A stretch of DNA of 63,941 nt, counting the filler, from Methanobacteriota archaeon (GTDB lineage Archaea; JACRDV01), in NCBI GenBank assembly GCA_024860865.1. It is 7 parts of 7 records of this genome, joined end to end, with 100 filler letters (N's around TTAATTAATTAA, not from the genome) between each part and the next. Parts side by side here need not be neighbours in the genome. Positions count along the whole stretch, not along the records: positions 1 to 9,519 come from JACRDV010000035.1; 6 more parts are not named here. One strand, written 5' to 3'. The notes under the pieces are model-generated. The model worked only from the letters and a program-made list of their open reading frames with translations. It was not told the origin of the DNA and ran no database searches. This document shows, one piece after another, positions 1,993 through 52,316 of this stretch. The position numbers and the translations under genes are program-made. Numbering within the stretch: position 1 is the stretch's first letter; every line of letters begins with the position of its first letter.

Positions 1993-2048
1993 ACTTTCCT
2001 GCTGGAAAGCTCTTTGCTCGAGATTAAAACTTTTCTCGAACAAATCAT
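1993..2048 (-). promoter_or_regulatory. Putative SECIS element (AUGA...GA type), copy 1, plus a 6-bp accessory hairpin
   Basis: Minus strand reads ATGA-T-TTGTTCGAGA-AAAGTTTTAA-TCTCGAGCAA-A-GA, then CTTTCC-AGCA-GGAAAG; ATGA lies 2 nt past the TAA of the Sec-DsrE gene. Confidence 0.8.
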
Positions 2049-2050: not shown

Positions 2051-2380
2051 TTACCCGAATGTTATAACTTTATCATTTTCTTCAACAAATTTGACAAAAT
2101 CGTTCATAACCGCTAGAGGGGAAAGTTGAAAAGTTTTATCTTTCCCTCTGGCTATTAAGCAAGTACCTCAAGCCATTATATGTCCACCGGCATCAATGAA
2201 ATCTCTTGTAACTTTTTCAACATCGAAAGTTTCATGTTTTATTTCTCCTACCTCGACTCCTTTACTCATGAGAAAAACTTTTACTTCATGGCCTTCAAGA
2301 ATAGCTGTAAGTCCAAATCTAAAAGCGTTCCAAGCACTTTCAGGTTCATTTGTATTAATTACAATACCTATTTTGCTCAT
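2051..2380 (-). CDS. DsrE-family selenoprotein (109 aa, UGTC motif)
   Basis: In-frame TGA at 2168-2170 in A-U-GTCLIARG, where the family has ACGTCLxxR; frame stays open to DKVITFG-TAA; GGAGGTGA SD before ATG 2380. Confidence 0.88.
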
Positions 2381-2901: not shown

Positions 2902-3063
2902 ATGAAGAAGACAAGTAAATGGAAGTGTGAGCCCTGTGGACATTTAACAGACGAAAAACCTACTGAGGTTTGTTTAATATGCGGTTCCCGTAGTACCGGT
3001 GCAGTAAAAATAGTCAGTCAAGAAGGTGAAATCAAACATATAGGGAGAGGAAAAACTGATTAA
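2902..3063 (+). CDS. Rubredoxin-like small protein (53 aa), absent from the ORF track
   Basis: Manual translation MKKTSKWKCEPCGH...VCLICGS with two CxxC motifs; GAGGG SD upstream. Confidence 0.7.
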   Translation: MKKTSKWKCEPCGHLTDEKPTEVCLICGSRSTGAVKIVSQEGEIKHIGRGKTD

Positions 3064-3132: not shown

Positions 3133-3188
3133 ACTTTCCTGCTGGAAAGCTCTTTGCTCGAGATTAAAACTTTTCTCGAGCAAGTCAT
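3133..3188 (-). promoter_or_regulatory. Putative SECIS element, copy 2, plus accessory hairpin
   Basis: 54 of 56 nt identical to 1993-2048; perfect 10-bp stem TTGCTCGAGA/TCTCGAGCAA; lies directly after the HesB-like gene. Confidence 0.8.
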
Positions 3189-3190: not shown

Positions 3191-3520
3191 TCAACAAATT
3201 CTTTCAAAACCTTTAATCGTTAGATATTCCGTGAACCAAGTTTTTTCAGCATCTATTTCTAGTTCACTTGTACTTAGGTGTTGTAGTAGGTACTGAGCAA
3301 GCTCAGAATCTAGGAAAATTGGGATATTATCATCTTTAATTTTTAGTAAGTTATATCCCTTTAGTTCCTGCTCTCTGACCAATGAAACGTCAAGGCTAGG
3401 CCCGCTTCATCCAATTCCGGCATATATTAAGACTGCTGGATCTGTGACGCCTAAGCTAATTTTTTTCTGTATGTAATGCTTTGCTTTTTCAGTTAAAACT
3501 GCTTTCAGGCCATTTTCCAA
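3191..3520 (-). CDS. HesB-like selenoprotein (109 aa)
   Basis: TTG start after GGAAGTGA; LTEKAK...LIYAGIG-U-SGPSL with TGA at 3407-3409 on the HesB GxGC(S)G cysteine; IPIFLD downstream. Confidence 0.85.
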
Positions 3521-3547
3521 GAAATTCACTTCCTTTTTATAATTATG

Positions 3548-4022: not shown

Positions 4023-4436
4023 ATGAATGAACTAGAAGAAATTCGAAGGAAAAAAATGGAAAAGTTAGTGAAAGAAATTGGTGAAAAGAATCCGAGTGCG
4101 CAAAATTATCCAAAGGCACCAATAACTATTACTGACGAAAATTTTGATCAAATAGTTCAACAATATCCTTTGATGGTCATAGACAATTGGGCCCCTTGGT
4201 GTTTTCCTTGCAGAATGATCGCTCCAATTATCGAAGAAATGGCTAAAGATTATGCTGGAAAAGTAGTCTTTGGAAAATTAAATACTGATGAAAACCAAAG
4301 AACCCCTCTAAAATTTGGAGTTATGGGCATACCAACGCTACTTATCATTAAAAATGGAAAAGAAGTCGATAGAATAGCAGGGGCAGTACCGAGAGAATAT
4401 ATCGAATCTAAATTGCGAAGATATTTGCATGAATGA
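4023..4436 (+). CDS. trxA: Thioredoxin
   Basis: WAPWCFPC, GIPTLL. Confidence 0.92.
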   Translation: MNELEEIRRKKMEKLVKEIGEKNPSAQNYPKAPITITDENFDQIVQQYPLMVIDNWAPWCFPCRMIAPIIEEMAKDYAGKVVFGKLNTDENQRTPLKFGVMGIPTLLIIKNGKEVDRIAGAVPREYIESKLRRYLHE

Positions 4437-4500
4437 ATCAAATTAAAATCATTTTGAGCTTTAAAGCTTTCTTTAATAATAAAAAAATCGAGGGAGATTA

Positions 4501-4854
4501 ATGGAAAAATATGAAATTCTTGAAATTTTAAAAAACGTATATGACCCAGATTATAAAGATAAGTCCATTGTAGAATTGGGTCTTGTGGATGAAAACACCA
4601 TAAAAATAAATGAAGACAAAATAGAAGTGGAATATAAAGTGGCAGCTCCATTTTGTCCATTTAGCGCTGCTATCGGAATTATGATTCAGTATGCTTTGGA
4701 AAAGAAATTTGGAAAGCGAGTTGATGTGAAAATCCAGCCTGGGCATTATCAAGAAAAACTAGTAGAAGAAATATTGAGAAGCGAAGAAAAAAGAAAAGAT
4801 TTGCTTAGTAAATTAGAATCTTTTGGAATACTTCAGCGATGTGTAAGAATATAG
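4501..4854 (+). CDS. DUF59 / Fe-S assembly (SufT-like) protein
   Basis: LKNVYDPD...SIVELGLV...PFCP. Confidence 0.8.
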   Translation: MEKYEILEILKNVYDPDYKDKSIVELGLVDENTIKINEDKIEVEYKVAAPFCPFSAAIGIMIQYALEKKFGKRVDVKIQPGHYQEKLVEEILRSEEKRKDLLSKLESFGILQRCVRI

Positions 4855-4866
4855 TAAATGAGATAA

Positions 4867-5775
4867 ATGAATACTGATATCCTAATTATCGGATCAGGAC
4901 CAGCCGGAATACAGGCTGCGATTTATGCCGCTCGAAGAAAAGTTGATGTAATCATTCTTGGTAAATTAGAAAATAGCTCTTTAGCAAAAGCCCATGTTGA
5001 AAATTATTTTGGCATCTCTGGGCCAATAGTTGGTATAGATTTACTAAGGGTTGGAAAAGAACAGGCAGAAAAATTTGGTGCAAAATTTATTGAAGAAGAT
5101 GCACTGCATCTCGAGCGAAAAGATGACAAGTTTATTGTTAAGACTGAAGGCGGAAAAGAAGTCGAATCAAAAGCAGTAATTTTTGCGATGGGTGTATCAA
5201 GAAAAAAACTTGGTGTGAAGGGAGAACAACAATTTCAGGGAAGAGGGGTTAGCTATTGTGCAGAATGCGATTGCGGATTTTTCAAGGGAAAGAAAGTGGC
5301 GGTCATTGGAGATGGAAGCGCGGCAGCTAGCAGCGCAATATTACTGGCTAAATATGCCTCAAAAGTCTATTTAATTTCAAAAAAACTTAGCACATCAGAA
5401 CATTTACAAGATGAATTGAAAGTAGGGAATATTGAAATAATAGAAGGCAAAAGAATAAGCGAAATTTACGGCAACAGTGCAGTCGGTGGGATTAAGCTGG
5501 ATGGCAGCTCATTGGAAGTAGAAGGTGTTTTCATTGAATTGGGTTCAAAGGGGGTTATAGAGCTCGCTGTCAATGTTGGTTTGCTCCCGGATCCAAGAGG
5601 TTACATTCATGTGAATGAGGAACAAAAAACCTCAGTGCTAGGAATTTTTGCTTGCGGCGATATATGCGGTCCTCCTTTACAACTTGCTAAGGCTGTTGGT
5701 GAGGGATGTATTGCCGGCATTGAAGCAGCAGAGTATGTAAAAAGAATAAGCAAATTAGAAAAGCAGACTGTTTGA
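4867..5775 (+). CDS. trxB: Thioredoxin reductase
   Basis: GSGPAG, GRGVSYCAECD, FACGD. Confidence 0.88.
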   Translation: MNTDILIIGSGPAGIQAAIYAARRKVDVIILGKLENSSLAKAHVENYFGISGPIVGIDLLRVGKEQAEKFGAKFIEEDALHLERKDDKFIVKTEGGKEVESKAVIFAMGVSRKKLGVKGEQQFQGRGVSYCAECDCGFFKGKKVAVIGDGSAAASSAILLAKYASKVYLISKKLSTSEHLQDELKVGNIEIIEGKRISEIYGNSAVGGIKLDGSSLEVEGVFIELGSKGVIELAVNVGLLPDPRGYIHVNEEQKTSVLGIFACGDICGPPLQLAKAVGEGCIAGIEAAEYVKRISKLEKQTV

Positions 5776-6635: not shown

Positions 6636-7838
6636 ATGAGCCCCAATCAAATCTACAAGAGAATATTTGTCGCGCCTTGGCCCGAATGGATTGGCGGTCT
6701 TATTTTAGGGATCTTCTTTATTATTTTCTCTGCTTGGGCATTAACGCCTTTTAACATTTATGGAGGCTATTATAATTGGGGTAGCTGGTTCTACAAACTC
6801 ACTGGATTAAGTGATTTTTTCCCTGCCTTTAAGGATCCTGCTTCACCACTTATGGCAAAGATGAGCGTGGGCAATTTAGGATTTTTGTTAGGTGTTTTCT
6901 CAGCAGCAATACTGGCAGGCGAATTTAAATTGAAAGGAGTCACATCAAAAACTGATTACATAGAAGCGGTTTTAGGCGGCTTTGTTATGGCTTTGGGCGT
7001 AGTGTTTGCATGGGGGTGCAACTTCGGAGGCTTCTTCTCAGCTATCACAGCGTTGAGCCTAAATGGCTTTGCTATGATGCTGGGGCTAATTGTTGGCGGC
7101 TTCTTGGGTTCTCTATATGTGAATTGGAGAGCAGCGGGGATAGAAATATTGGAGTTGATACCGGTTGAAGCCAAAATCTCTAGCCCATCTACGCCTTCAG
7201 ATAGTGGTAACAAAACGTGGCTGCCTATTTTACTGATACTTATTCCCATAACACTTGTTGTTTTAATAAATTACTATTATTCTATTAACGGTGCCATTAT
7301 TTACTCTGGAATTTTATTCATAGGTTTGTTCATTGGTTTTACTGTACAAAGGTCACGGCTTTGCTTCACAACTGCTTTTCGAGATCTCTTTAACAAAAAA
7401 GGAGAATTTTTAAGATCATTAAAATTGCAAAGAGCCATAGTACTAGGCTTAATTGTAGCAGCAATAGGTATTGCTGCTTTAAAGGCGAATAATCTCTTAG
7501 ATAAAGATCTAAATGTAAGCCCAGTGGGATGGATCAATGTGATGGGAGGCATTTTATTTGGGTTTGGCATGGTAATTGCAGGAGCTTGCGGTTCCGGAAT
7601 GTTATGGCGGACTGCAGAAGGACATTTGAAGCTTGTGATAGCACTTGTTGTTACCACCTTAGCCTTCGTGCCTTTAACGCTATTTATATGGAACTATGCA
7701 CCTGCATTGGCAGGGCCTAAAATCTTTATTCCAACCGTCTTTGGATGGCCACTTGGTCTACTATTCATTATAGGTCTACTTTCGGTATGGCTGCTAATTT
7801 TGAGATGGATAGAACATCAATGGAGAGGTAGGAAATAG
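6636..7838 (+). CDS. YeeE/YedE (TsuA-like) sulfur-compound transporter
   Basis: Many TM segments; GCNFGG, RSRLCF and GACGSG cysteine motifs. Confidence 0.88.
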   Translation: MSPNQIYKRIFVAPWPEWIGGLILGIFFIIFSAWALTPFNIYGGYYNWGSWFYKLTGLSDFFPAFKDPASPLMAKMSVGNLGFLLGVFSAAILAGEFKLKGVTSKTDYIEAVLGGFVMALGVVFAWGCNFGGFFSAITALSLNGFAMMLGLIVGGFLGSLYVNWRAAGIEILELIPVEAKISSPSTPSDSGNKTWLPILLILIPITLVVLINYYYSINGAIIYSGILFIGLFIGFTVQRSRLCFTTAFRDLFNKKGEFLRSLKLQRAIVLGLIVAAIGIAALKANNLLDKDLNVSPVGWINVMGGILFGFGMVIAGACGSGMLWRTAEGHLKLVIALVVTTLAFVPLTLFIWNYAPALAGPKIFIPTVFGWPLGLLFIIGLLSVWLLILRWIEHQWRGRK

Positions 7839-8090
7839 ATGGGAGTTAAGTTTGAAAAAAAAGATGAGAAATCTTACCTATTAGATGTAAGAGGATATCT
7901 ATGTCCTTATCCAGTAATCTTTACGAGAAAAGCCCTTCTACAGTTAAAAGAAGGAGATTTCTTGGAGGTCTTTACTGATAATCCCGCTTCTTGTGAAAAT
8001 GTGCCTAATGATGTTAAGGAAGATGGCCATAAGGTCTTAGCTATTGAACAAATGGGGCGAGGTGAGTGGAAGATAGTTATTAAAAAATAG
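7839..8090 (+). CDS. TusA/YeeD-family sulfur carrier
   Basis: LDVRGYLCPYP. Confidence 0.9.
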   Translation: MGVKFEKKDEKSYLLDVRGYLCPYPVIFTRKALLQLKEGDFLEVFTDNPASCENVPNDVKEDGHKVLAIEQMGRGEWKIVIKK

Positions 8091-8171
8091 AGGGGTGAAG
8101 AGTTAGCTAGGAAAATGAGAAATTAAAACTTGCCAGTTCTAAAAAATAAAAATTTTTTGAGAGGTGTTAAA

Positions 8172-8564
8172 TTGGAAATAGGTGTAAGCCAAGGCAATAT
8201 TGAAAAGAAAAATAAAACCTTAACAATATTTTTATTCACGAGCCCATATGGTTTTGAAAATTCCTCGACGGCAGCGCGATTGGCTGAGGCAGCTTTAGAC
8301 AAAGGTTATTCTGTGAATATGTTCGCTTCGAGCGATGGAGTTTACAATTTTATGGCAGGACAAAAGGCTGTTGCAATTCCGAACATTCAACAAGAGTTTG
8401 AAAAACTGATCAATAAAGGGTTAAAGGTATACTTATGTGGTCCTTGTTTAAACTTTCGTGGGATACAGCGCCAGAATCTTATCGAGAATTCTAAACCTAG
8501 CTCTCTTACTGAACTTTTTGCTATAATGGGTCAGAGCAATGTATTTCTATGCTTTAGTTTTTAA
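8172..8564 (+). CDS. DsrE/TusD-like sulfurtransferase
   Basis: SPYG, DGVYN, CGPCLNFRG. Confidence 0.8.
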   Translation: MEIGVSQGNIEKKNKTLTIFLFTSPYGFENSSTAARLAEAALDKGYSVNMFASSDGVYNFMAGQKAVAIPNIQQEFEKLINKGLKVYLCGPCLNFRGIQRQNLIENSKPSSLTELFAIMGQSNVFLCFSF

Positions 8565-8579
8565 TGGGCAGGTGGTTTT

Positions 8580-8945
8580 ATGGAATCAATTTGCATAATA
8601 GTAAGAAAGGCTCCTTATGGAGTCATCCAAGCGGGCGAGGCTTTAAGGCACATTAGTGGAGCAGTTGTTCATAAACTAAAGACTACTGCAGTTTTGTTGG
8701 ATGATGGAGTTTACCTTGCAAAAGCCAATCAAGCCGGTGAGAATACTGGTTGGCCCTCTTTAGCTGATGGTTTGAAGGAACTGTTGGAAGTTAGTAAGGG
8801 CAACCCTCCAAAAATTTTTATTCATGCTGAATCGATGAAAAACAGAGGATTGCACATGACGGACATGATAAAAGGAGCTGAAGAAATCACTGACGACCAG
8901 TTAGCAAAAATTTTGAGCGATACTAAAACAGTAATGATATTTTAA
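8580..8945 (+). CDS. DsrF/TusC-like protein
   Basis: KAPYG, DDGVY, ESMKNRGL. Confidence 0.75.
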   Translation: MESICIIVRKAPYGVIQAGEALRHISGAVVHKLKTTAVLLDDGVYLAKANQAGENTGWPSLADGLKELLEVSKGNPPKIFIHAESMKNRGLHMTDMIKGAEEITDDQLAKILSDTKTVMIF

Positions 8946-8961
8946 AAATAGGGGGAGAAAA

Positions 8962-9291
8962 ATGAAATCAATTCTGATAGTAATATCTAACTCGCAAGAT
9001 AATGCCATATCTTCATTACAGCTGGCTAATTCAATTCAAAAACAGGGCAATAAGGTTTCCATTTACCTTCTTCAAGACGGTGTATTTTGTTCTCTTGCTA
9101 ATGAAAATATAACTAAATCAGTGGTGGAAAAAGCCATAGCAAGTGGAGTGGAGTTTTATGTGCTATGCGATGACCTAACCCTTCGGGGGTTTTCAGAAAG
9201 GGAGATAATCCCGCAAGTACATGTTTCATCTTATTCTGAGCTGATCGACCTAATGTTAGAAAAATGCGATTTTACCATAGGAGTCCTTTAA
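8962..9291 (+). CDS. DsrH/TusB-like protein
   Basis: LLQDGV, YVLCDDLTLRG. Confidence 0.75.
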   Translation: MKSILIVISNSQDNAISSLQLANSIQKQGNKVSIYLLQDGVFCSLANENITKSVVEKAIASGVEFYVLCDDLTLRGFSEREIIPQVHVSSYSELIDLMLEKCDFTIGVL

Positions 9292-9519
9292 GGAAAATCA
9301 AAAGAGCAAATATTATTACTTACTGCGGCTTTTTTAATCGATTAATCCAACATTTCTTTATAAATTAGAATTAGAAACAAAAAAAATAAATGATAAATGA
9401 GTTATTTCTTTCGCTTTCATTGATATTTTTTGGCTGAAATAAAAACACAATCTGGCTCAATATTTTTAACATCTAAATTTTCAAATTCAGATTCCTTTAG
9501 CATGTTTCGTATATCCCTA

Positions 9520-9619
9520 NNNNNNNNNNNNNNNNNNNNNNNNNNNNNNNNNNNNNNNNNNNNTTAATTAATTAANNNNNNNNNNNNNNNNNNNNNNNNN
9601 NNNNNNNNNNNNNNNNNNN
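9520..9619. other. Artificial contig linker
   Basis: N44-TTAATTAATTAA-N44, with stops in all six frames. Confidence 0.98.
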
Positions 9620-10433
9620 CAAAAAATCCGCCTTCACTTGCATAAGTACTAGTTGTATAATCTAAACCAATCTGATGAAACATTTTGGCCCAGCCAATCA
9701 TAGTGCCCCAGTGATATGGGCTGAAGAACTCTGCAGAAGGCGTAACTAACATTACTTCAGCTCCTTTTTTGTTAAATGGAATCTTCGCATCTTCCTTTAT
9801 CTCATCCCTCATTTCTTCCTCAGCAAGCTCAATAGTTTTAGCAAATGCTTTTGGAGGGATCCCTAAATTATTTCCAATAGTATACACTTTTGCTATCACT
9901 TCAGTCACATACTTGGTTTGGACGCCTACAGAAGTCAATAATTCCCTTGCAGCCCATGTTATCTCAGCAGTATCTATTCCATAGGGGCAGTAAAGCGCGC
10001 ATCGCCTGCATTCGGCACATTGATAAAAATAAGGATATAATAAATCTTTTAGCACCTCTTCCGTTAACTCTTGAGCTCCTGCAAGCTTTCCAAAAAGTTT
10101 TCCACCAATTGTATAATATTTCCTATAAATAGACCGCAAAATTTCTGCTCTAGCTACTGGCATATTCCTTGGGTCTAAAGTGTCAATGAAAAAGTGACAT
10201 TTATCTGCGCAAGCTCCACATCTAACGCATATGTCTAAGTAAAGCTGAAAAGATCTATACTTCTTTCTTAATTCATCCATTTTTTTTATGAATATTTCCT
10301 TCCAATTTTGAGGGAGCTTCCAGTCATCAAGCGTCCAATCTCTTGAATATGGTGTTCCCATTACGTCTGTATCTTTCTTTTTTGCTGCCCAACATTTGTA
10401 TTTTTTAGCTGGAAAGCTTAGATCAATCTTCAA
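9620..10433 (-). CDS. dsrK: DsrK, 3' truncated by the contig end
   Basis: CVRCGACADKCHFF, YFYQCAECRRCALYCPYGIDTAE. Confidence 0.9.
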
Positions 10434-10444
10434 TTTCTCACCTA

Positions 10445-11314
10445 CTACTTCTTTTTCTCTATAGCCTTTAGGTCAGCTTCAAATCTCTTTGCGTATTGTT
10501 CCCATGACTCTACCTTCACTGGATAATTCCACGGATTAACATATCTTCTAACTCTTGAATCATTCTTTTGGTTTCTTGTTGGACTAAAGAATATTCCAGG
10601 TGCATGCACTAGCTTACTGAATGGGAAGTAAGCAATAAGAACCCAAACAAAAAAGAGGTGCAAAAAGAAGAACCAATGTAGTTCTGGAACCACGGGTTTG
10701 AAAGCTAATAAGCTGAGCATGTATGCTTTGACTTCTACTACGTTCACTCTGATGTAGTAAGCCAGTAAGTCTCCACTGATAACTATTGCTAATAACAGTA
10801 GCAGGGCGAAGTAGTCTGAGAATAATGAGATAAATCTTAGTTCTGGATAAACGAAGCGCCTAATCAGCAGGTAAAGAAGAGCCGCAATTATAAGAAGACC
10901 TGAATAATAAAGTCCTGGGATGAAAGCTCCTATTTGGTCTATTGTTCGGAGAGATACTACCCACGAGAGAGATGGCTCAAAAAAATATCGTAACTGCCTT
11001 AGAATGATTATAAGTAACATCCAGTGGAAAGCTAATGATCCGAGCCAGAGCCACTTGTTTCCCCTAGTCTCATCTTTTTCAAAGTCATAACTAGTATTCC
11101 TAAGTAGGCTTCTAAAGACAAAAATTTCGCTAGCCATGCGAAGGATTACTCCAAGATATGTTTTTGGTTTTTCAAGATATCCACCAGTAACTACTATTTT
11201 GAGAGGTACTGGAATATTAGCCCATGAAATTATGCGCTGTACAAAACCTATGACAAAGATAACAAATGCAACATAGGGTACTACAACTCCAAAAAAGAAG
11301 TAAGTGAGACTCAC
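10445..11314 (-). CDS. dsrM: DsrM membrane b-type cytochrome
   Basis: FRSLLRN, AFHW, YFPFSKLVHAPGIFFSPTRNQ. Confidence 0.9.
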   Translation of the reverse strand: MSLTYFFFGVVVPYVAFVIFVIGFVQRIISWANIPVPLKIVVTGGYLEKPKTYLGVILRMASEIFVFRSLLRNTSYDFEKDETRGNKWLWLGSLAFHWMLLIIILRQLRYFFEPSLSWVVSLRTIDQIGAFIPGLYYSGLLIIAALLYLLIRRFVYPELRFISLFSDYFALLLLLAIVISGDLLAYYIRVNVVEVKAYMLSLLAFKPVVPELHWFFFLHLFFVWVLIAYFPFSKLVHAPGIFFSPTRNQKNDSRVRRYVNPWNYPVKVESWEQYAKRFEADLKAIEKKK

Positions 11315-11436
11315 TAAATTACCTCCATTTTAATTAAGTATCATTTATATTCTTGGAGGAGATTTTGAGTCAGAATTCATTGAACCTACAAGTGAAGAAA
11401 GTAAACCAATAGTTAATACACCCATTTTATAATCTC

Positions 11437-11736
11437 CTACAACCATGCAAGCTTTTCATATTCATTCATTATCAAATCTACTAATCCGTTATACGTCACT
11501 ATGTTCACTTTTTTATCTACATCGTTGTCTGTAAATCCCCTTGTTTGTAGGTCTTCTGAAAGAACATAAAATTTTGCTCCTCCTTTCTCTAATAAAGGAG
11601 AAGTTTTTCCATTTTCTTTGATTACTGCATGCAAAATTCCATTGCTAACGAGAAAGATTCCAAGTTTTTCTGCATTCAGCCTATCTATTGTTCTTCCGGG
11701 AACCCTAAAATCACTTATAAATACACCAAGTTTCAT
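11437..11736 (-). CDS. DsrH/TusB-like protein
   Basis: FYVLSEDLQTRG, YNGLVDLI; GGTGA SD before ATG 11736. Confidence 0.65.
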   Translation of the reverse strand: MKLGVFISDFRVPGRTIDRLNAEKLGIFLVSNGILHAVIKENGKTSPLLEKGGAKFYVLSEDLQTRGFTDNDVDKKVNIVTYNGLVDLIMNEYEKLAWL

Positions 11737-12330
11737 CCCATCACCAAATAATAATTTCTGAATTTGTGATTGCAAGTTTTGCTATATAATTTTGATGGTC
11801 ACTTAAATAAAAAACAAATTATAATTATCTTTAGTTCACCATTACTCAATTTGAATAAAAAATTAAAAACCCAAACACAAATTATTTTTTTAGAAAAAAG
11901 AAACAAAAAATAAAAAAACTCTAAGCATGAATTTTGAAGGGCATGCAGTTTCTACATAAACTTCATTATTTTTACGTTAGAATACAAGTTAAAATGGCTT
12001 AACTATCATTATCATTGCTTATTTAATAACCACTAAACTTTATAATTAGTAGTAAACAACATAAACAGTAAGAGTAAAAATATTTTTATATTTTAATAAA
12101 AAATAAAAATAAAAAAAAAATTCGTAACTATTTAGCGATATGAAGTTGATTTTATTGCCTCTGCTAACCAATTTAAGGCACTTTATGGAGTAATATTTTT
12201 GCTACAAGTTAGCACATCGTCAATTTTGACGACCTGATGCACTTTAATGCAGAATTTACTTCAAATGGCTAAATAGATACAAAAATTCTTTAATAGCAAT
12301 ATAGTCGTCTATAGCAATCTAAGTGATTTT

Positions 12331-12576
12331 ATGGCATTAAGGGATGAAAAACCAACAATAACAGTTGATGTGAAAGGAAAAGTATGCCCATATCCTCTCC
12401 TTGAGACAAAATTAACTTTGAAAAAAATGAAAAGTGGAGAAATTTTAGAGGTGATAGTAGACACAGAAGCGGCAGTAAAAACAAGCTTGCCTAACCTCTG
12501 CCAAAAAGAAAAACATGAATTTGATTGTATAGAAAAAAGTCCGGGAGTTTGGAACATTTATATAAAGAAAGCCTAA
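12331..12576 (+). CDS. TusA-family sulfur carrier
   Basis: VDVKGKVCPYP. Confidence 0.9.
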   Translation: MALRDEKPTITVDVKGKVCPYPLLETKLTLKKMKSGEILEVIVDTEAAVKTSLPNLCQKEKHEFDCIEKSPGVWNIYIKKA

Positions 12577-12826
12577 AAAAATTCCTTTTTTCTTTTAATA
12601 AAATTAATTAAATAAAATATAAAATTATTTTTTAACTGGCTGACTTAAAATTTCAATCAATACTTTAAAAGCACATAATATAAGTTACACACTTAAAAAT
12701 TTTTTAAATTTTTTGTTAGATTCGCTGATTATTACCAGATATTCTTCTTCTCCAGCACGAAATCTATTTATATGAACATTTTCCGATTATCAATCGCTAT
12801 ATGCTTATTTTTAGAGGTGTAAAATA

Positions 12827-13981
12827 ATGGCTGAGAAATCCGAAACTCCAATATTAGACGAACTTGAAAAAGGACCGTGGCCAAGTCATGTGACGGAACT
12901 GAAGAAAACAGGATATAAAGGACTTCTTGCTCTTTATGAACAGATCTACCAGGACAAAATGACACATTGGGCACACGGTGGCATGGTCGGTGTACCAGGT
13001 TATGATGCAGGAGTTATAGGAAGAGTAAGCGATAGACCAGATATCTTAAAAGATGCTCATACATTTAGAATAATAGAACCAGCTGCTTGGTTTTATAAAA
13101 CAGAATACTTGAGAAAGATTTGCGATACTTGGGAAAAATATGGCAGCGGTTTGATGAATCTTCACGGAGCGACTGGAGATCTGCAGTTAATAGGAATAAA
13201 AACTGAAAATATGGTGCCTTGCTTCAATGAATTTGCACAGATAGGATTTGACCTAGGTGGTTCAGCCGGAGACATAAGAACAATGAGTTGTTGCGTTGGA
13301 CCAGCTAGGTGTGAATTTTCCTGTATAGATACACTTGCAATATACCAAGAGCTAACTATGTCTTACTTAGACGAAATGCATAGACCGAGATTTCCATATA
13401 AATTTAAAATAAAAATTTCGGGATGCCCAAACGATGGCGTTGCAGCTACAGCAAGGTCAGATTTAGCAATAATAGGGACATGGAGAGATTCCATTAGAAT
13501 AGATCAGGAAGAGGTAAGAAAATACGCAAGTGCTGGGTTAAATATCAACGACGTTTGCGCTAAGTGTCCTACAGAAGCTTTGGAATGGAATGGAACAGAA
13601 TTAAAATTAAACGCAGATGACTGTGTAAGATGTATGCATTGTATAAACAAAATGCCAAAGGCGCTGAGGCCAGGCATCGATAAAGGAGCTACTATACTAA
13701 TAGGAGGAAGAGCTCGAGGAAGGTATGGTGCATTTCTTGCTTGGGTACTGGTCCCATTTATGAAAGTTAACCCACCGTACACTGAATTAAAAGATCTTAT
13801 CAAGAAGATAGTAGAATGGTGGGATGAAAATGGAAGAACAAAGGAAAGAGTTGGAGAAACTATCTACAGATTTGGAATGGGAAGATTTCTAAGAGCAGTT
13901 GGATTACCAGCAGTTCCCCAACAAATAATTCGCCCAAGGGCGAATCCATTCTGGTTCTATTGGCCAGGAGAGGTAAAATAG
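12827..13981 (+). CDS. dsrA: Dissimilatory sulfite reductase alpha subunit
   Basis: TPILDELEKGPWPS, CVGPARCE, FPYKFKIKISGCPND, CVRCMHCIN. Confidence 0.96.
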   Translation: MAEKSETPILDELEKGPWPSHVTELKKTGYKGLLALYEQIYQDKMTHWAHGGMVGVPGYDAGVIGRVSDRPDILKDAHTFRIIEPAAWFYKTEYLRKICDTWEKYGSGLMNLHGATGDLQLIGIKTENMVPCFNEFAQIGFDLGGSAGDIRTMSCCVGPARCEFSCIDTLAIYQELTMSYLDEMHRPRFPYKFKIKISGCPNDGVAATARSDLAIIGTWRDSIRIDQEEVRKYASAGLNINDVCAKCPTEALEWNGTELKLNADDCVRCMHCINKMPKALRPGIDKGATILIGGRARGRYGAFLAWVLVPFMKVNPPYTELKDLIKKIVEWWDENGRTKERVGETIYRFGMGRFLRAVGLPAVPQQIIRPRANPFWFYWPGEVK

Positions 13982-13994
13982 AGAGGTGAAAAAA

Positions 13995-15068
13995 ATGTCC
14001 ACTCAGCAGCCTATAAAATTGGACTTTGGAGTTGTTCACTACGACCTAATGCTTCCTCCAATTATTAAGAGAAACTATGGAAAATGGAAGTATCATGAAA
14101 TAATAAAGCCGGGTATTTTAAAACATGTTTCTGAAACTGGAGAAGAGTTTTATACTGTAAGGGCGGGGGCGCCAAAATTCGCAAGTGTAGATACAGTAAG
14201 AAAGCTTTGCGATTTGGCAGATAAATACTGCGATGGGTATCTAAGATTTACCAGCCGACATAACATAGAATTCCTTATTTCTAAGAAAGAAAACATTGAT
14301 GGATTGATAGCAGATTTAAAGAAAATGGGACTCCCAGTTGGTGGGACTGGAAATTCTATGGCCAGCATAATACAATGTACTGCTTGGATGCATTGTCACA
14401 CAGCAGCTACAGACGCAGCAGGGATAGGAAAGTCGGTATACGATGGATTATTCGAATACTTCCAAAGGATGGATTTGCCAGCAAAGCTAAAAATCGCGAT
14501 CTCAGGTTGTTTAAACATGTGCGGCGCAGTTCACTGTTCAGATATAGCGATTTTGGGAGTCCACAGAGTTCCACCCAAAGTAATAGACGAAATAGTATCG
14601 AAGGCATGTGAGATTCCTAGCCTGATTGCAGTCTGCCCAACCTATGCAATTAAACCGAACCCGAAAGCTAAAAGCATAACAATAGATCCAGATAAATGCA
14701 TGTACTGTGGCATTTGTTATGGAATGTGCCCCGGAGTTCCACTAGCAGATCCGAAAAATGATGGTGTTTCAATTTGGGTAGGAGGAAAAGTCTCAAGCAC
14801 TCGAAGCGGTCCAATGTTTTCTAGATTAGTTGTTCCGTATCTGCCAAATAATCCACCCCGATGGCCAGAAGTGGTCGATGTAGTGAAGAAAATAGTAAAT
14901 GTATGGGTCGATGGTGCAAAGAAGGACGAAAGGATGGGAGAATGGATAGAAAGAATAGGTTGGGGTAGGTTCTTCAAAATAACAGGGATACCATTTACTG
15001 ATAAACACATCGACGACTATGTATTTGCAATTCCATCTATGAGTACTGGTGCTCAAGTTAGATTATAG
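13995..15068 (+). CDS. dsrB: Dissimilatory sulfite reductase beta subunit
   Basis: NYGKWKYHE, CLNMCGAVHCSD, CMYCGIC, PNNPPRWPE. Confidence 0.96.
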   Translation: MSTQQPIKLDFGVVHYDLMLPPIIKRNYGKWKYHEIIKPGILKHVSETGEEFYTVRAGAPKFASVDTVRKLCDLADKYCDGYLRFTSRHNIEFLISKKENIDGLIADLKKMGLPVGGTGNSMASIIQCTAWMHCHTAATDAAGIGKSVYDGLFEYFQRMDLPAKLKIAISGCLNMCGAVHCSDIAILGVHRVPPKVIDEIVSKACEIPSLIAVCPTYAIKPNPKAKSITIDPDKCMYCGICYGMCPGVPLADPKNDGVSIWVGGKVSSTRSGPMFSRLVVPYLPNNPPRWPEVVDVVKKIVNVWVDGAKKDERMGEWIERIGWGRFFKITGIPFTDKHIDDYVFAIPSMSTGAQVRL

Positions 15069-15164
15069 CTTGAACTCTTTTTTCTTTATTTTAATTTGAA
15101 AACTTAATCAGTTATGTACTTTAAAACTAGGTATTTAATAAGTCTCTCAAAATAAAAACTCTCA

Positions 15165-15383
15165 TCAGAATGGTTTCTTTTCCTTTACTACGATTTCAAG
15201 GCCCTCTACTGTTATTGCTCCAGTTGGACAGCTGTTAACTACTTCCTCGAGGTTACAGCTATCGGACCCCTCTGATTTGAGAACAATTGCTTTTTCTCCC
15301 TCTAACTTGAATACATCAGGACACAAACTTTCGCAGGTTCCACAGCCTTGACAGGCTCCGTAATCTATGTTTATTGCTACCAT
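15165..15383 (-). CDS. Ferredoxin
   Basis: CQGCGTCESLCP ... CPTGAI. Confidence 0.85.
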   Translation of the reverse strand: MVAINIDYGACQGCGTCESLCPDVFKLEGEKAIVLKSEGSDSCNLEEVVNSCPTGAITVEGLEIVVKEKKPF

Positions 15384-15521
15384 GTTTATTCTCCCTCTAG
15401 ACACCGTTTTATAATGTTAATAGTTTTATAAAATTTTCCCTAATCGCAATTGAACATTATGCAGTATAAACACGAAACCATATGTGACAAAAATAAATAT
15501 TATTAATTTTAATTAAAAACC

Positions 15522-16721
15522 ATGAATAAAAAACCCATATCAATTATGTGGGAATCTACTATTGCGTGCGGTCTCGCTTGCAAGCACTGCAAGGCTTCTG
15601 CTAAAAAAACTCCAGATCCTGATGAGCTTTCCACAGAAGAGGCAATGGATCTAGTTGACCAAATGGTTGAATTTGGCAAACCTTACCCAATTTTGCGCAT
15701 AACAGGCGGAAATGCGCTGATGAGGGACGATATATTTGAAATAATAAAGTGTGCAAAGGGTGAAGGGTTAAATGTTACAATAGCCCCTAGCACTACGCCT
15801 CTTTTGAATAGGGAGAATATAACAAAGCTAAAAGAAGCAGGAACTGATGTAGTTGCGATAAGCATAGATGGAGCAGATGCTGAATCGCACGACAATTTCA
15901 GAGGAGTCAAAGGAACTTTTGATACAATGGTTAAGGCAACACAAATTATGAATGATGTGAAACTGCCATTCCGTCTTCTCACTACAGTAACAAAATTCAA
16001 CGTCCGCAACTTACCCGAGATATTTTTGCTCAGTAAAAGACTCGGTGCCATTGGATGGTATTTGTATATGCTTATCCCAACCGGAAGGGGTAAGATAGAA
16101 CACGGAATAAGTCCAGCCGAATTTGAGGATGTTTTTAACTTCATTTATGATTTAATGAAATATCGTGTGATGACAATAAACGCAATAGCGGGAAGCGAAC
16201 CATTCAGAAGAGTTGCCATAATGAGAAGGCTTGTAGAAGAAGGCAAATTGAACGAAGAAGTGCTGAGATTGGGCGAGCTTTATCGCTTTTTGAAAAATAA
16301 GCTTGACAATTTGCTGAGCTCTGGATCGTTCGAGAAAATTGAAGTCTCAGCTAAAAAAAAGCATAACAACTTCGGTAAGGGCATATTCGTTTCAAGAAAT
16401 GGTAGCGTATATCCAAGCAGTTTCATGCCGATAGAGATTGGAAATGTTCTAAATGATAGGTTAGCGCACATATATGCAAGCGCAGAAATTTTGAGAGATT
16501 TGAATAACACAAAAAAGCTTAAAGGGCGCTGTGGCATCTGCGAGTTCAATGACGTTTGTCGTGGTTCGAGGTCGCGTGCTTATGCTGTTACAGGCGACTA
16601 TCTTGCTGAAGACCCTTACTGCGCTTACCAACCAGGGACAGTAGGAAAGAGAGAAGGAAATGAAGCCATTCTTCAAGAATTACGTGTTACTAATTTTAGT
16701 CGTCAAGCACCTTCACTTTAG
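15522..16721 (+). CDS. Radical SAM/SPASM protein of the NirJ/AhbC/AhbD-like haem synthesis group
   Basis: CGLACKHC; GRCGICEFNDVCRGSRSRAYA. Confidence 0.8.
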   Translation: MNKKPISIMWESTIACGLACKHCKASAKKTPDPDELSTEEAMDLVDQMVEFGKPYPILRITGGNALMRDDIFEIIKCAKGEGLNVTIAPSTTPLLNRENITKLKEAGTDVVAISIDGADAESHDNFRGVKGTFDTMVKATQIMNDVKLPFRLLTTVTKFNVRNLPEIFLLSKRLGAIGWYLYMLIPTGRGKIEHGISPAEFEDVFNFIYDLMKYRVMTINAIAGSEPFRRVAIMRRLVEEGKLNEEVLRLGELYRFLKNKLDNLLSSGSFEKIEVSAKKKHNNFGKGIFVSRNGSVYPSSFMPIEIGNVLNDRLAHIYASAEILRDLNNTKKLKGRCGICEFNDVCRGSRSRAYAVTGDYLAEDPYCAYQPGTVGKREGNEAILQELRVTNFSRQAPSL

Positions 16722-16758
16722 AAAGTTCTGCTTTTCTAACTTAATCCTGACTTCAAAA

Positions 16759-17781: not shown

Positions 17782-18014
17782 AATTATACTCTTTCAATAA
17801 CTTATACAAAGAAGTTATTTGTGTTATAAAGTATACTTATATGGTAATCCTTCAATTCTCCGTAAACAACGCGGCTAAATTCTGAACTGGCTAAAGCAAT
17901 GAGTATCCTTCGGTGGTTTTATGGATGTTAATTTAATTTAAGCTTTTTTAATTAGAAAAACTCTGTGCTAAAAAATTATCTTAACTTTCTCTTAAAACAC
18001 GAAACAGATAAAAC

Positions 18015-18884: not shown

Positions 18885-18886
18885 TT

Positions 18887-19399
18887 CTATTCCTCTTTTG
18901 GCAATACTTTCTCAAGCCCAGCTTTCTTTAAGACTTTCTTCATTTTTTCAATGTCTACTGGCTCCACTGCAGGTAAACCCAAGTCTGCTCTTGCTTCGTT
19001 TTCAAAGTCAGTGATTTCTGTCACTCTTCCAATTTTATAAACACTTTCTGCAATCATTTTTATTCCATTTGGTACGTAACCCTGCCTAGCTGCAATGTTT
19101 CGAAGAGCTCTTATTACCATAGCTGGTTTTACATCGCGCGGACATCTTTCATAACAATTATAGCAAAATGAACAAAGCCAAATAACATTACTAGAGAGCA
19201 ACTCATCTTTAAACCCAAAAATAGACATACGGATAATCTCATGTGGTCGAAAAGTTGCCTCTAACTCTGCAACTGGACAACCACCACTGCAAGTACCACA
19301 TGCATAACATCGAAGGAGATGGTCTCCACCTTCTTCTTTTAAGACTAAGTTTTTGAAGGCGGGATCAATACGTTTTGGCGAAGGTTTTTCAGCCACCAT
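18887..19399 (-). CDS. hdrC: Heterodisulfide reductase subunit C
   Basis: CYACGTCSGGCP, WLCSFCYNCYERCP. Confidence 0.93.
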   Translation of the reverse strand: MVAEKPSPKRIDPAFKNLVLKEEGGDHLLRCYACGTCSGGCPVAELEATFRPHEIIRMSIFGFKDELLSSNVIWLCSFCYNCYERCPRDVKPAMVIRALRNIAARQGYVPNGIKMIAESVYKIGRVTEITDFENEARADLGLPAVEPVDIEKMKKVLKKAGLEKVLPKEE

Positions 19400-22681: not shown

Positions 22682-22692
22682 GAGTGAATTAA

Positions 22693-52189: not shown

Positions 52190-52316
52190 TAGCACACCCC
52201 CCATGTCCATTGTCTTTAAAAGACAAAAAATGTAATTAAATTTTGTCTGACATTAATAGACTAAAAGGCGTACAAAGCTTTTCTCATTGTAGAGACATAA
52301 TAATGTAAGAACTGCC

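Follow-up and report, generated by a model that had tools for sequence, protein, structure and literature searches.

A predicted DsrE/YchN-like selenoprotein gene with an Asgard-type candidate SECIS element between arsR and sqr genes of a deep, poorly sampled archaeon

The locus described here is part of the genome of an archaeon assigned to the Methanobacteriota (JACRDV01; GenBank assembly GCA_024860865.1) and was analysed within a window of 63,941 nucleotides, i.e., the whole stretch of DNA under study, which joins parts of seven records by filler. It contains a dsrE-like gene interrupted by a single in-frame TGA and flanked, on the same strand, by genes for an ArsR-family regulator and an SQR-like flavoprotein (for an overview see Table 1). 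The regulator was matched by Pfam HTH_5 (50.2 bits) and NCBIfam HTH_metalloreg (84.1 bits, cut-off 55), the flavoprotein by Pfam Pyr_redox_2 (84.8 bits) and FCSD_central (41.7 bits). The gene order arsR, dsrE(Sec), SECIS, sqr, which had been proposed in a preliminary description of this DNA, was thus confirmed by sequence reading and family matches, as was the position of a hairpin element within the 90-nt spacer between dsrE and sqr (positions 1961-2050). The gap between arsR and dsrE is only 8 nt, which suggests translational coupling of the two genes. A candidate promoter and operator occur some 30-50 nt upstream of the arsR ATG (2737-2739), and arsR, dsrE and sqr may be co-transcribed from a promoter upstream of arsR.

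Table 1. Features of the arsR-dsrE-sqr locus and of the second TGA-containing gene (positions along the window)
Feature	Position	Strand	Remarks
SQR-like flavoprotein gene	803-1960	minus	385 aa; no TGA; GTGATC 3 nt upstream of ATG
56-nt RNA element (cassette), whole	1993-2048	minus	
Second small hairpin	1993-2010	minus	GCUUUCC-AGCA-GGAAAGU; part of the duplicated 56-nt cassette
Candidate SECIS core	2011-2048	minus	AUGA 2045-2048; 11-bp stem; 10-nt loop AAAGUUUUAA; GA 2011-2012
DsrE/YchN-like predicted selenoprotein gene	2051-2380	minus	109 codons; motif U71-G-T-C74
In-frame TGA, predicted to be read as selenocysteine	2168-2170	minus	
arsR-family regulator gene	2389-2739	minus	116 aa; stop codon TGA 2389-2391
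Shine-Dalgarno sequence of dsrE	2389-2396	minus	GGAGGTGA; overlaps arsR stop codon; read from sequence
Candidate arsR operator	2769-2778	minus	palindrome TATTCGAATA; read from sequence
Candidate arsR promoter	2781-2792	minus	TATATATATAAA box; read from sequence
Twin SECIS cassette	3133-3188	minus	54 of 56 nt identical
Second TGA-containing gene	3191-3529	minus	about 112 codons; ...AGIG-U-SGPSL...; TGA 3407-3409

With TGA read as selenocysteine (U), the minus-strand frame 2051-2392 contains one TGA, reads ...GGHIMA-U-GTCLIARGKDKTFQLSPLAVMNDFVKFVEENDKVITFG and ends at a TAA stop codon (2051-2053). The likely start codon is the ATG at 2380, with GGAGGTGA 8 nt upstream, and homologues start with MK[IL]GI; counted from this ATG, the predicted selenocysteine is residue 71 of 109. 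Pfam DsrE (PF02635) matched residues 7-112 of the read-through protein with 44.2 bits (cut-off 22.7), and the match thus crosses the TGA. A full DsrE domain is thus obtained on read-through. Both the assignment to the DsrE family with a U-x-x-C motif and the normal DsrE C-terminus, as given in the preliminary description, agree with this result. In an AlphaFold2 model of the read-through protein (pLDDT 91.6), the selenocysteine position falls where strand 71-75 passes into helix 76-81, while helix 96-105 and the last strand of the sheet (108-112) come after the TGA. The best fold match was Escherichia coli YchN (1jx7, TM 0.81), and the other fold matches were DsrEFH and TusBCD. When PDB sequences were searched with the family profile, YchN, a member of the DsrE family, was the sole match (E 3.9e-7); it is 24% identical to the window protein and its C-K-T-C motif aligns with U-G-T-C, having cysteine in place of selenocysteine. 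The gene context of YchN is presumably unlike that of the window dsrE.

The database protein P0004 (70 aa) ends exactly before the TGA, where gene callers cut the gene, and a single change turns a TGY codon into TGA. Both observations would fit a truncated gene or pseudogene, in which the active-site cysteine codon has recently mutated to a stop codon that ends translation, and in which the cassette downstream is a terminator, a regulatory or a mobile element unrelated to selenocysteine. Against this, the frame following the TGA is open and conserved. Of the 80 genome loci kept, 72 were read at the selenocysteine position (8 were not), and 74 of 80 metagenome loci extend far enough to cover it, the other 6 ending short. 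Cysteine is present there in all 72 and all 74, or 146 of 146 homologues read; the pairing of UGA with cysteine, named in the preliminary description as a check, was therefore found throughout. The TGA matches the first cysteine of a nearly invariant A-C-G-T-C-L motif: among 41 aligned sequences, conservation is 90% or higher at A74, C75, G76, T77, C78 and L79, the U of the window protein aligning on C75, and past the TGA this level of conservation was observed for G76, T77, C78, L79, R82, P92, M96, D98 and D107. The closest cysteine homologue, P0003, is about 70-71% identical over 95% of the length. In addition, a contig from another study, 97.5% identical to the locus (29 differences in 1144 nt), contains dsrE without an indel and without a listed change in the TGA, and the frame past the TGA is accordingly open in both strains. 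Coding conservation downstream of the TGA, on which the preliminary description had depended, is thereby established. The two strains differ by four non-synonymous and two synonymous changes after the TGA and by two and seven, respectively, before it; the pattern after the TGA, small in numbers, would also be expected under relaxed constraint and in this respect speaks for a pseudogene.

The spacer hairpin was predicted to fold better than all of 200 shuffled sequences (z -4.7). It starts 2 nt past the TAA stop codon and 119 nt past the UGA (218 nt in the second TGA gene); a range of 30-500 nt is quoted for this distance in the available part of PMC9723677. The upper stem comprises 11 bp including one G-U pair, and the apical loop of 10 nt, AAAGUUUUAA, is A-rich. 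The hairpin belongs to a 56-nt cassette, of which the 64-kb window contains exactly two copies, both immediately following an open reading frame interrupted by TGA. The two copies lie 1.1 kb apart and are 96.4% identical; the twin has the same AUGA ... GA core, an upper stem of 10 bp and a fold z-score of -3.6. One of the two differences converts a G-U pair to G-C; the copies are too alike for any covariation to be derived from them. Assemblies of four DNA runs broke at the repeated cassette, so that no single contig joins dsrE to sqr and the junction is bridged by overlaps only. An eSECIS-like rule that requires at least 10 bp and allows no mismatch gave two hairpins in the window as opposed to a mean of 0.13 in 30 shuffles, whereas a looser rule (at least 9 bp, at most one mismatch) gave six matches against a mean of 6.5 in shuffles. 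The generic pattern ATGA-gap-AAAA-gap-GA was rejected as a marker of the element due to its lack of specificity (26 matches, 19 expected). A search of the window against Rfam at the gathering threshold returned only a tRNA, which is a tRNA-Ser and the only tRNA of the window, and searching both cassettes in E-value mode yielded chance-level matches only, none of them to a SECIS family.

Comparison with published elements placed the cassette close to those described for Asgard archaea. As given in the available part of Huang 2024 (PMC11227280), the eSECIS-like type I model has a core of (AU)GA ... [G/A]A around the upper stem, a stem of 7-15 bp with at most two mismatches, and a loop of 8-20 nt with adenines first, and the window element agrees with each of these features. 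It also matches the description of lokiSECIS in the consulted part of Mariotti 2016 (PMC4989117). According to the same literature, as far as available, the Asgard elements are located just 3' of the gene and can abut the stop codon; the dsrE element likewise lies just 3' of its gene. A difference concerns the internal loop and the lower helix, which would be formed by the 5' and 3' flanks together. In the predicted folds of the window cassettes, the 3' flank pairs with itself (GCUUUCC/GGAAAGU) and not with the 5' flank, and no lower helix was evident; the available description of the Huang 2024 model (PMC11227280) does not require one. The resulting second small hairpin is kept in both cassettes and is followed in the twin by UUUU, resembling a terminator; it may substitute for the lower helix or be the leftover of a terminator. 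Two other types of element were considered and rejected. The eaSECIS of Methanococcales and Methanopyrus is modelled, in the part of PMC11227280 at hand, with a GAA_A bulge between a lower stem of 3-10 bp and a G/C-rich upper stem of 3-6 bp, and this bulge is absent from both cassette hairpins. A bacterial-type SECIS within dsrE would correspond to a hairpin at about 2113-2151; it had a z-score of -1.4, was equalled by 20 of 200 shuffles, and three of its pairs are altered in the second strain. The preliminary description had set the gene against the classical methanogen set of selenoproteins. This framing did not hold, since the element is of the AUGA...GA type described for Asgard archaea and not of the GAA_A type of Methanococcales, and since the host is a deep archaeon with genes for DsrAB and DsrEFH.

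The cassette also bears on the possibility that the gene is truncated. While its lack of a match to any Rfam SECIS family and the terminator-like end of the twin's second hairpin would be in line with an element unrelated to selenocysteine, it agrees with the published SECIS model in every feature compared and is present just twice in 64 kb, behind TGA genes with the known selenocysteine motifs U-x-x-C and U-x-G-P. Moreover, the TGA of dsrE is positioned exactly at the residue that is selenocysteine in bacterial members of the family, the frame following it is preserved as outlined above, and hdrA and vhuD of the same organism contain TGA as well. Taken together, we regard a pseudogene as improbable. 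In contrast, it is probable that the gene encodes a 109-residue protein of the DsrE/YchN fold whose UGA is decoded as selenocysteine via the 3' eukaryote-like SECIS; the actual insertion of selenocysteine at this codon we infer from the sequence.

The second TGA gene showed a weak match to the HesB-like selenoprotein family TIGR01911 (E 8e-4, 19.9 bits, cut-off 66.35; residues 10-105 aligned to positions 4-91 of the 92-position profile). Its motif U-S-G-P corresponds to the U-x-G-P listed in a table in the available part of PMC13188914. When 1.84 billion representatives were searched with its product P0002, nothing was retrieved but a fragment of the protein itself and a single odd protein of repetitive sequence. 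In hdrA and vhuD, the TGA codons occupy known selenocysteine positions; close to these two genes, simple eSECIS-like rules gave no convincing hairpin within the window. In-frame TGA codons in four genes, dsrE, the HesB-like gene, hdrA and vhuD, could also result from a change of the genetic code, by which every TGA is read as an amino acid (codes 4 or 25) without any selenocysteine signal. However, the long conserved genes for EF-2, EF-1alpha, the DsrAB-like proteins and SQR have no internal TGA, arsR terminates at a TGA where its homologues end, and the in-frame TGA codons occur at known selenocysteine positions only. A code change is therefore close to refuted, and we assign it hardly any probability.

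To characterize the host, the elongation factors encoded in the window were compared with database sequences. The best non-self matches were 44-48% identical for EF-2 and 65-69% for EF-1alpha, and the named ones among them belong to Bathyarchaeia, Hadarchaeales, Thermococci, Archaeoglobi, Hydrothermarchaeota and DPANN. No Asgard archaeon was found among the named entries of the best 120 matches of either EF-2 or EF-1alpha, and the named best matches were not from Methanococcales either. A search of genome contigs with exact EF-2 peptide patterns identified no relative. As judged from these sequences, the host belongs to a deep archaeal branch that has been poorly sampled; it possesses genes for DsrAB and DsrEFH and does not look like a member of the Asgard archaea.

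DsrE-like selenoproteins have otherwise been listed for bacteria. A family termed 'DsrE-like protein' with a U-x-x-C motif is reported in the available parts of PMC1088965 (the Sargasso Sea selenoproteome) and PMC13188914. In 401 genomes of Desulfobacterota we obtained 31 matches, 20 of which have an in-frame TGA; at 14 of these 20 loci a U-x-x-C motif (U-G-V-C, U-G-T-C or U-K-S-C) was read at the same position, the other six being left out of this reading. The bacterial proteins thus share the fold family (PF02635) and the selenocysteine position, the first cysteine of C-G-x-C, with the window protein. They differ in their hosts, which are bacteria and not archaea, and in the signal, which is a hairpin within the coding region in the bacterial genes and a 3' eukaryote-like element in the window gene. 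Among the close homologues, the selenocysteine form is confined to the window and its relative of about 97% identity, and all others have cysteine. In a tree of DsrE sequences, the window protein grouped with a cysteine form (SH-aLRT 97) and not with the bacterial selenocysteine clades. An AU test rejected a single clade of all selenocysteine forms (p-AU 0.0025), but not a clade of the window protein with the main bacterial selenocysteine group (p 0.19). According to the tree, selenocysteine in the window protein more likely originated independently of the main bacterial selenocysteine clade, but the AU test does not establish this.

The presence of the same cassette behind a second UGA gene further indicates how the window gene may have arisen. 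In Asgard archaea, new selenoprotein genes have SECIS elements resembling those of resident selenoprotein genes (PMC11227280 and PMC4989117, as far as available), and this pattern of copying and acquiring an element is the same as that of the two window cassettes. The window dsrE therefore probably arose locally from a cysteine ancestor, in which a TGY codon would have changed to TGA and a resident SECIS cassette would have been acquired. The seven Asgard selenoprotein families described in the accessible parts of these two studies include neither a DsrE-like nor a HesB-like one. Neither 'DsrE' nor 'HesB' occurs in the main text of PMC11227280, PMC4989117 or PMC9723677; Tables S3-S5 of PMC11227280 could hold a DsrE-like entry.

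The gene neighbourhood points to sulfur metabolism. The window forms a sulfur island with genes for a YeeE/YedE-type transporter, DsrEFH, DsrMK-like, DsrAB-like and HdrABC proteins, thioredoxin and thioredoxin reductase, and a Grx-like gene is also located near dsrE. The best NCBIfam match of SQR was NF049943, in which residues 4-383 aligned to profile positions 1-386 of 406 with an E-value of 1.5e-88, but the score of 297.5 bits does not reach the family cut-off (525). This family represents a 'type III sulfide quinone reductase, selenoprotein subtype' and thus indicates selenium chemistry in other type III SQR systems. Unlike this subtype, the window SQR has no in-frame TGA, and selenium would instead reside on its partner protein. 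Sulfide-responsive SQR operons that combine a sulfurtransferase with a thiol-based repressor are known from the cst operon of Staphylococcus aureus and from the SqrR/BigR regulons. These systems and the window locus each encode a repressor, a small protein of the sulfur-carrier type and SQR together, but in the window the repressor is an ArsR with Cys20 and Cys91 and the carrier a predicted selenocysteine-containing YchN-type protein. Across 34 aligned ArsR sequences, comprising that of the window and 33 encoded next to DsrE homologues, cysteine was present in 32 at the Cys20 column and in 22 at the Cys91 column. Sensing of the SqrR/BigR type was rejected for the window ArsR, since Cys20 and Cys91 do not align, in the part covered by the alignment, with the cysteines of SqrR (6o8k), whose cysteine in ...RLMIMCYL aligns with Asp33; the BigR model scored 60.4 bits (cut-off 155).

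At 41 of 160 related loci examined by tblastn, an ArsR homologue was found near the DsrE homologue, mostly directly upstream on the same strand, and an SQR homologue at 14 of 160. Clustering of the neighbours gave ArsR at 34 loci, a SHOCT-like small membrane protein at 28, an OsmC-like protein at 12, and SQR and a NifS-like protein at 10 each, so that partners other than SQR are equally frequent. Based on this conserved synteny, a selenium-based role in sulfane-sulfur metabolism together with SQR and under control of ArsR, as put forward in the preliminary description, may be envisaged: the Sec/Cys pair could take up sulfane sulfur produced by SQR as a selenopersulfide, or could reduce sulfane sulfur. 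We put this function forward tentatively, at somewhat less than an even chance. The constancy of ArsR and the variation of the adjoining gene would also be consistent with a real selenoprotein that is not a partner of SQR but a general thiol/persulfide or peroxide-stress oxidoreductase of an ArsR-controlled regulon with an interchangeable sqr context. Redox-active dithiol proteins typically have a C-x-x-C motif (U-x-x-C in the window protein) at the N-terminal end of a helix, and the thioredoxin, thioredoxin reductase and Grx-like genes close by point in the same direction. However, sqr directly follows on the same strand with a Shine-Dalgarno-like sequence and no evident promoter in the spacer, the order dsrE-then-sqr was found again at four distant loci (L026, L035, L111 and L119), and the surrounding 20 kb are devoted to sulfur metabolism. 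A general oxidoreductase of this kind is rather unlikely, though of appreciable probability. Finally, the protein might be related to the DsrE-like domain at the C-terminus of YedF, standing here on its own, and might carry or reduce selenium species for SelD. A CGxC motif and a genomic link to SelD are described for this YedF domain (PMC5322559, as far as available); the window protein weakly matched the YedF family TIGR03527 (E 0.0017; residues 38-111 aligned to positions 123-193 of the 194-position profile), and the YeeE/YedE-family transporter gene (6636-7838) is located only 4 kb off. The match, however, reached 18.3 bits with a cut-off of 110, and the protein lacks the defining feature of YedF, a SirA-like domain at the N-terminus. 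Furthermore, ArsR, OsmC-like proteins and SQR, and not selD, are the conserved neighbours of the homologues, and the transporter gene lies beside dsrEFH, which fits sulfur transport. A role in selenium handling is accordingly improbable.

Under the favoured reading as a selenoprotein, decoding of the UGA would yield a redox motif, U71-G-T-C74, at the N-terminus of a helix. The decoding signal would be the 3' AUGA...GA kink-turn hairpin of the Asgard type in the spacer before sqr, of which a copy would have been placed behind the second UGA gene. In the tentative function with SQR, the two-cysteine ArsR repressor would set expression, and the thioredoxin system, whose genes lie at a distance of 2-4 kb, would regenerate the Sec/Cys pair via a selenenylsulfide.

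The 2026 review PMC13188914 counts, in its available part, 11 archaeal selenoprotein families and restricts the use of selenocysteine in archaea to Methanococcales, Methanopyrales and Asgard archaea. As DsrE-like selenoproteins are given there without the mark 'bacteria and archaea', a family so far listed, in that part of the source, for bacteria only would join the archaeal list. If the selenoprotein reading is true, the DsrE/YchN-type would be the twelfth archaeal family, with a divergent HesB-like one beside it. Together with hdrA and vhuD on the same contig, dsrE would point to use of selenocysteine with a eukaryote-like SECIS outside of Asgard-looking lineages. The host may thus represent a fourth archaeal lineage using selenocysteine, outside of Methanococcales, Methanopyrales and Asgard archaea, which has an AUGA...GA SECIS and enlarges its selenoproteome by pasting the cassette behind genes whose active-site cysteine codon has mutated to TGA; we consider the chances of this to be nearly balanced, leaning slightly against. 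If so, the kink-turn SECIS would not be an Asgard speciality on the way toward eukaryotes but older, or laterally mobile, in archaea, and its presence in this host would be relevant to the history, from archaea to eukaryotes, that has been proposed for the SECIS. The two near-identical cassettes 1.1 kb apart would then constitute a rare snapshot of the birth of selenoprotein genes. With respect to annotation, the window DsrE is an example of a protein that gene callers reduce to a 70-residue stub. A selenocysteine-containing YchN-type protein beside SQR would, in addition, open a specific way of approaching the function of the YchN/small-DsrE CxxC family.

The probable selenocysteine (Sec) gene lies on the minus strand between arsR and a sqr-like flavoprotein gene; its ATG, situated 8 bases past the arsR end, is preceded by GGAGGTGA. 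The order arsR - dsrE(Sec) - SECIS - sqr proposed in the preliminary description was recovered, with the element in the dsrE-sqr spacer, and translation with TGA read as Sec (...DAGGHIMA-U-GTCLIARGKDKTFQLSPLAVMNDFVKFVEENDKVITFG) was identical to the read-through sequence given there. Pfam assigned the read-through protein to DsrE/DsrF (PF02635, 44.2 bits, residues 7-112), the arsR product to ArsR (HTH_5) and the flavoprotein to Pyr_redox_2 together with the central domain of flavocytochrome c sulfide dehydrogenase. The top NCBIfam match of the flavoprotein was 'type III sulfide quinone reductase, selenoprotein subtype' (E 1.5e-88, score below the model cut-off), though its gene has no TGA in frame. 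A small rubredoxin-like zinc-ribbon ORF diverges from arsR, and the AT-rich intergenic region that the two share carries the palindrome TATTCGAATA.

Coordinates of the features discussed, in order along the window
Feature	Position	Strand	Remarks
sqr-like flavoprotein gene	1960 to 803	-	385 codons; GTGATC 3 bases before ATG
dsrE-sqr spacer		-	90 nt; holds SECIS element
first cassette	1993-2048	-	56 nt; SECIS core 2011-2048
dsrE(Sec)	ATG at 2380, TAA at 2051-2053	-	one in-frame TGA, 2168-2170
coding-region hairpin	2113-2151	-	10 bp
arsR	2739 to 2389	-	stop codon TGA (2389-2391)
rubredoxin-like ORF	2902-3063	+	
twin cassette	3133-3188	-	56 nt; 2 differences from first copy; directly behind second TGA ORF
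second TGA ORF	3191-3529	-	AGIG-U-SGPSL, TGA at 3407-3409; own stop TGA (3191-3193)
Trx/TrxR genes	4023-5775		
sulfur island	6636-19399		also radical SAM, hemA, hdrB, hdrC
YeeE/YedE-type transporter	6636-7838		
dsrEFH-like genes	8130-9291		
DsrK- and DsrM-like genes	9620-11314		
DsrH-like gene	11437-11775		
DsrA/B-like genes	12827-15068		
hdrA	within 19649-23097	+	TGA at 19826-19828
vhuD	within 19649-23097	+	TGA at 22732-22734
hdrA-mvhD fusion	23109-25475	+	with Cys; directly after Sec hdrA/vhuD
EF-1alpha	40773-42083	-	
EF-2	42445-44652	-	
ribosomal protein S12	45251-47191	-	
RNA polymerase subunit A''	48218-50578	-	
Ftr	51299-52210	-	H4MPT C1 pathway

Searched by word index, a collection of 5.8 billion proteins returned 40 relatives of the DsrE product. 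Across their alignment, conservation of A-C-G-T-C-L is 90% or higher, and the U of the window falls on the first Cys. The closest full-length relative (P0003) is 71% identical with Cys at the Sec position, and a 70-residue database entry (P0004, 97% identical), which ends directly before the TGA, is the same gene of a sister strain, shortened by the gene caller. A one-genome-per-species scan gave 593 relatives, of which 80 were kept; the Sec position was readable in 72 and was Cys in all of them, one of the two search patterns having included the Cys, which biases against TGA forms. The metagenome scan, with patterns free of the Cys, yielded 80 loci, and all 74 that reach the position have Cys. 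The UGA/Cys pairing that had been named as a check was thus found throughout, and since every locus read in either scan has Cys, the Sec form appears limited to the window lineage. Among 401 Desulfobacterota genomes, 29 contained matches, 31 in total, of which 20 had an in-frame TGA; the 14 of these that were cut out and read, the other six lying outside the motif count, show U-G-V-C, U-G-T-C, U-G-K-C, U-G-S-C or U-K-S-C in the same alignment column. Published tables and these loci bear out the earlier statement that DsrE-like selenoproteins are known from bacteria; passages in PMC1088965 and PMC13188914 place U-x-x-C forms on record since 2005, and the DsrE-like family is a known bacterial selenoprotein family.

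The AlphaFold2 model built with the alignment (pLDDT 91.6, pTM 0.85) placed the Sec residue at a strand end and helix start (residue 75 in the read-through product P0001, whose count begins at the upstream GTG, 2392, and residue 71 when the ATG at 2380 is taken as the start). One helix and the last sheet strand follow the TGA, so that, according to the model, a product ending there would miss part of the fold. The closest solved structure was E. coli YchN, which came first in the sequence-profile comparison (E 3.9e-7, its CKTC aligned with CGTC) as well as in the fold comparison (TM 0.81). The third Cys of most homologues (C-P-[IL]-S-T-M) is Ser in the Sec form (L-S-P-L-A-V-M; codon 2122-2124), and Ser also occurs there in the metagenome relative L083. 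The feature is real, and we consider it highly probable that the window dsrE is a selenoprotein gene.

The spacer RNA reads UAA-CA-AUGA-UUUGUUCGAGA-AAAGUUUUAA-UCUCGAGCAAA-GA, followed by a small hairpin (GCUUUCC-AGCA-GGAAAGU), and the folding of a 95-nt stretch beat 200 of 200 shuffles (z -4.7). The AUGA before the stem, the adenines at the loop start and the GA after the stem represent all Lokiarchaeota SECIS features outlined in sections of PMC4989117, and the element fits the numeric type I eSECIS-like model as set out by Huang et al. in part of PMC11227280 (GA_[G/A]A core, stem 7-15 bp, <=2 mismatches, loop 8-20 nt). The Methanococcales SECIS type was ruled out, as the element is without a GAA_A bulge. 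With at least 9 bp and <=1 mismatch, the eSECIS-like rule gave 6 matches in the window versus a shuffle mean of 6.5; tightened to 10 bp or more without a mismatch, it gave 2 versus 0.13. Because the model by itself is loose, the case for a SECIS rests on a combination: a perfect 11-bp form, duplicated, each copy being a few bases from the stop of a gene with TGA at a known Sec motif. Of the two differences in the twin cassette, one replaces a G-U stem pair by G-C and the other leaves the first position of the stem unpaired; a third copy was absent from the 64-kb window. The Rfam search of the window and cassettes matched no family to the element, which, as noted in passages of Mariotti et al. 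(PMC4989117), is likewise the case for the Lokiarchaeota SECIS. At the bacterial-type position, inside the coding sequence directly behind the UGA, the hairpin was not significant (z -1.4); it starts about 20 nt past the Sec UGA, and three of its pairs are altered in the sister strain.

The second TGA gene displayed weak likeness to HesB-like selenoproteins and had no other relative among 1.84 billion representatives; past its own TGA stop, the frame stays open until the UGA within the SECIS AUGA. The arsR stop lies about 340 nt upstream of the dsrE SECIS, probably on the same mRNA, and if the SECIS acts on this stop too, ArsR would be longer by one Sec and six residues. In part of PMC4989117, Mariotti et al. 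argue that UGA stops in such an upstream position are avoided in hdrA.

Contigs with this stretch occurred in three DNA runs, which come from different studies. A 1144-nt contig spanning 2019-3162, with 29 differences from the window, carries both P0004 substitutions (H to Q, M to V) and leaves the gene free of indels; among the differences listed, none falls at the TGA or in the SECIS part covered (2019-2048). As the differences listed are the best-supported ones, this is a weaker indication than a direct read of the codon would be; P0004 ending at that codon agrees with it. Four non-synonymous and two synonymous differences lie after the TGA and two and seven, respectively, before it, which speaks against the selenoprotein reading, and constraint may be relaxed after the TGA, the counts being small; the changes after it fall in a loop region that is variable among homologues too (pLDDT dip, residues 81-90). 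In run X3, one contig links 2040 to 3181 across both SECIS copies and omits arsR, dsrE and the rubredoxin-like gene; either it represents a recombinant from which dsrE is missing, or the 56-nt repeat misled the assembly. In the other runs, contigs end at this repeat.

The origin of the Sec form was addressed by a quickly built maximum-likelihood tree. Its 46 rows comprised the window and P0003, 33 Cys forms (every third pattern-readable locus of the two scans, plus L083), two Desulfobacterota Cys rows and nine bacterial Sec rows. The window was sister to the Cys form P0003 (SH-aLRT 97) within a Cys clade, and the Sec/Cys label takes three changes. A single clade of all Sec rows was rejected (p-AU 0.0025), while the window joined with the main bacterial Sec clade was not (p 0.19, AU test). 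A local Cys-to-Sec change in the window lineage appears to be the better reading; it would fit the copied SECIS cassette, and also what Huang et al. propose in part of PMC11227280, namely that a newly arising selenoprotein gene takes over the SECIS of one already present.

EF-2 of the host matched itself at 100% and otherwise proteins at no more than 48% (Bathyarchaeia, Hadarchaeales, Thermococci, Theionarchaea), and EF-1alpha did not exceed 69% identity with any other protein, both in the 5.8-billion-protein collection; named EF-1alpha rows included Archaeoglobi, Hydrothermarchaeota/Pyrohabitans, Micrarchaeota, Diapherotrites and Methanocellales. No Asgard, Methanococcales or Methanopyrales occurred among the named rows of the best 120 matches of either factor. 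Judged by these proteins, the host belongs to a very poorly sampled archaeal lineage and is likely outside Asgard. The TGAs of hdrA and vhuD indicate that the organism would use further Sec codons; by simple rules no eSECIS-like hairpin was found near these genes within the window. HdrABC genes are also present, and the co-occurrence of DsrAB with DsrEFH in a deep archaeon is notable. Inteins appear to interrupt both ribosomal protein S12 and RNA polymerase subunit A'' (Intein_splicing in each, the polymerase one also matching LAGLIDADG); to our knowledge, an intein inside S12 is unusual.

The surroundings of dsrE bear on its function. By tblastn, ArsR was near the DsrE homologue in 41 of the 160 related loci, its end in most cases a few bases upstream of the DsrE start, and SQR adjoined it in 14, several in dsrE-then-sqr order, many of the 160 being short contigs. 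Neighbour clustering gave ArsR at 34 loci, a SHOCT-like small membrane protein at 28, OsmC-like at 12 and SQR and NifS-like proteins at 10 each. ArsR is a constant companion of this small DsrE subfamily, and a more general redox role within a stress regulon under ArsR is conceivable, if rather unlikely. In an alignment of the window ArsR with 33 neighbours, the Cys20 column (H-A-E-[IM]-C) was Cys in 32 of 34 rows and the Cys91 column in 22. SqrR/BigR-type sensing was rejected, since these cysteines are off the SqrR/BigR positions, leaving a persulfide, an oxidant or a metal as candidate effectors. Fold family, U-x-x-C geometry and synteny tentatively suggest, as the preferred mechanism, a role in sulfane-sulfur transfer: Sec71 would take SQR-derived sulfane sulfur as a selenopersulfide, Cys74 would resolve this to a selenenylsulfide, and Trx/TrxR would re-reduce the latter. 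Selenium handling, as in the CGxC domain of YedF, seems improbable.

Eukaryote-like SECIS have been described for Asgard archaea in parts of PMC4989117 and PMC11227280, whereas the present host does not look Asgard. In contrast to the bacterial DsrE-like selenoproteins, the window gene is archaeal and would be read via a 3' eSECIS-like element. DsrE-like is not among the 11 archaeal families counted in the relevant section of a 2026 review (PMC13188914), available passages of that review, PMC1088965 and PMC5322559 describe no archaeal DsrE-like selenoprotein, and 'DsrE' and 'HesB' are absent from the main texts of three Asgard selenoproteome papers (PMC11227280, PMC4989117, PMC9723677). As predicted here, the combination of this family in an archaeon, 3' eSECIS-like decoding, a host not Asgard-looking, a duplicated cassette and an arsR-dsrE-sqr setting is new, and the duplicated cassette is predicted to serve also the neighbouring, very divergent HesB-like selenoprotein. 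The wider reading, worth following, is that this may be a new Sec-using archaeal lineage spreading a SECIS cassette.
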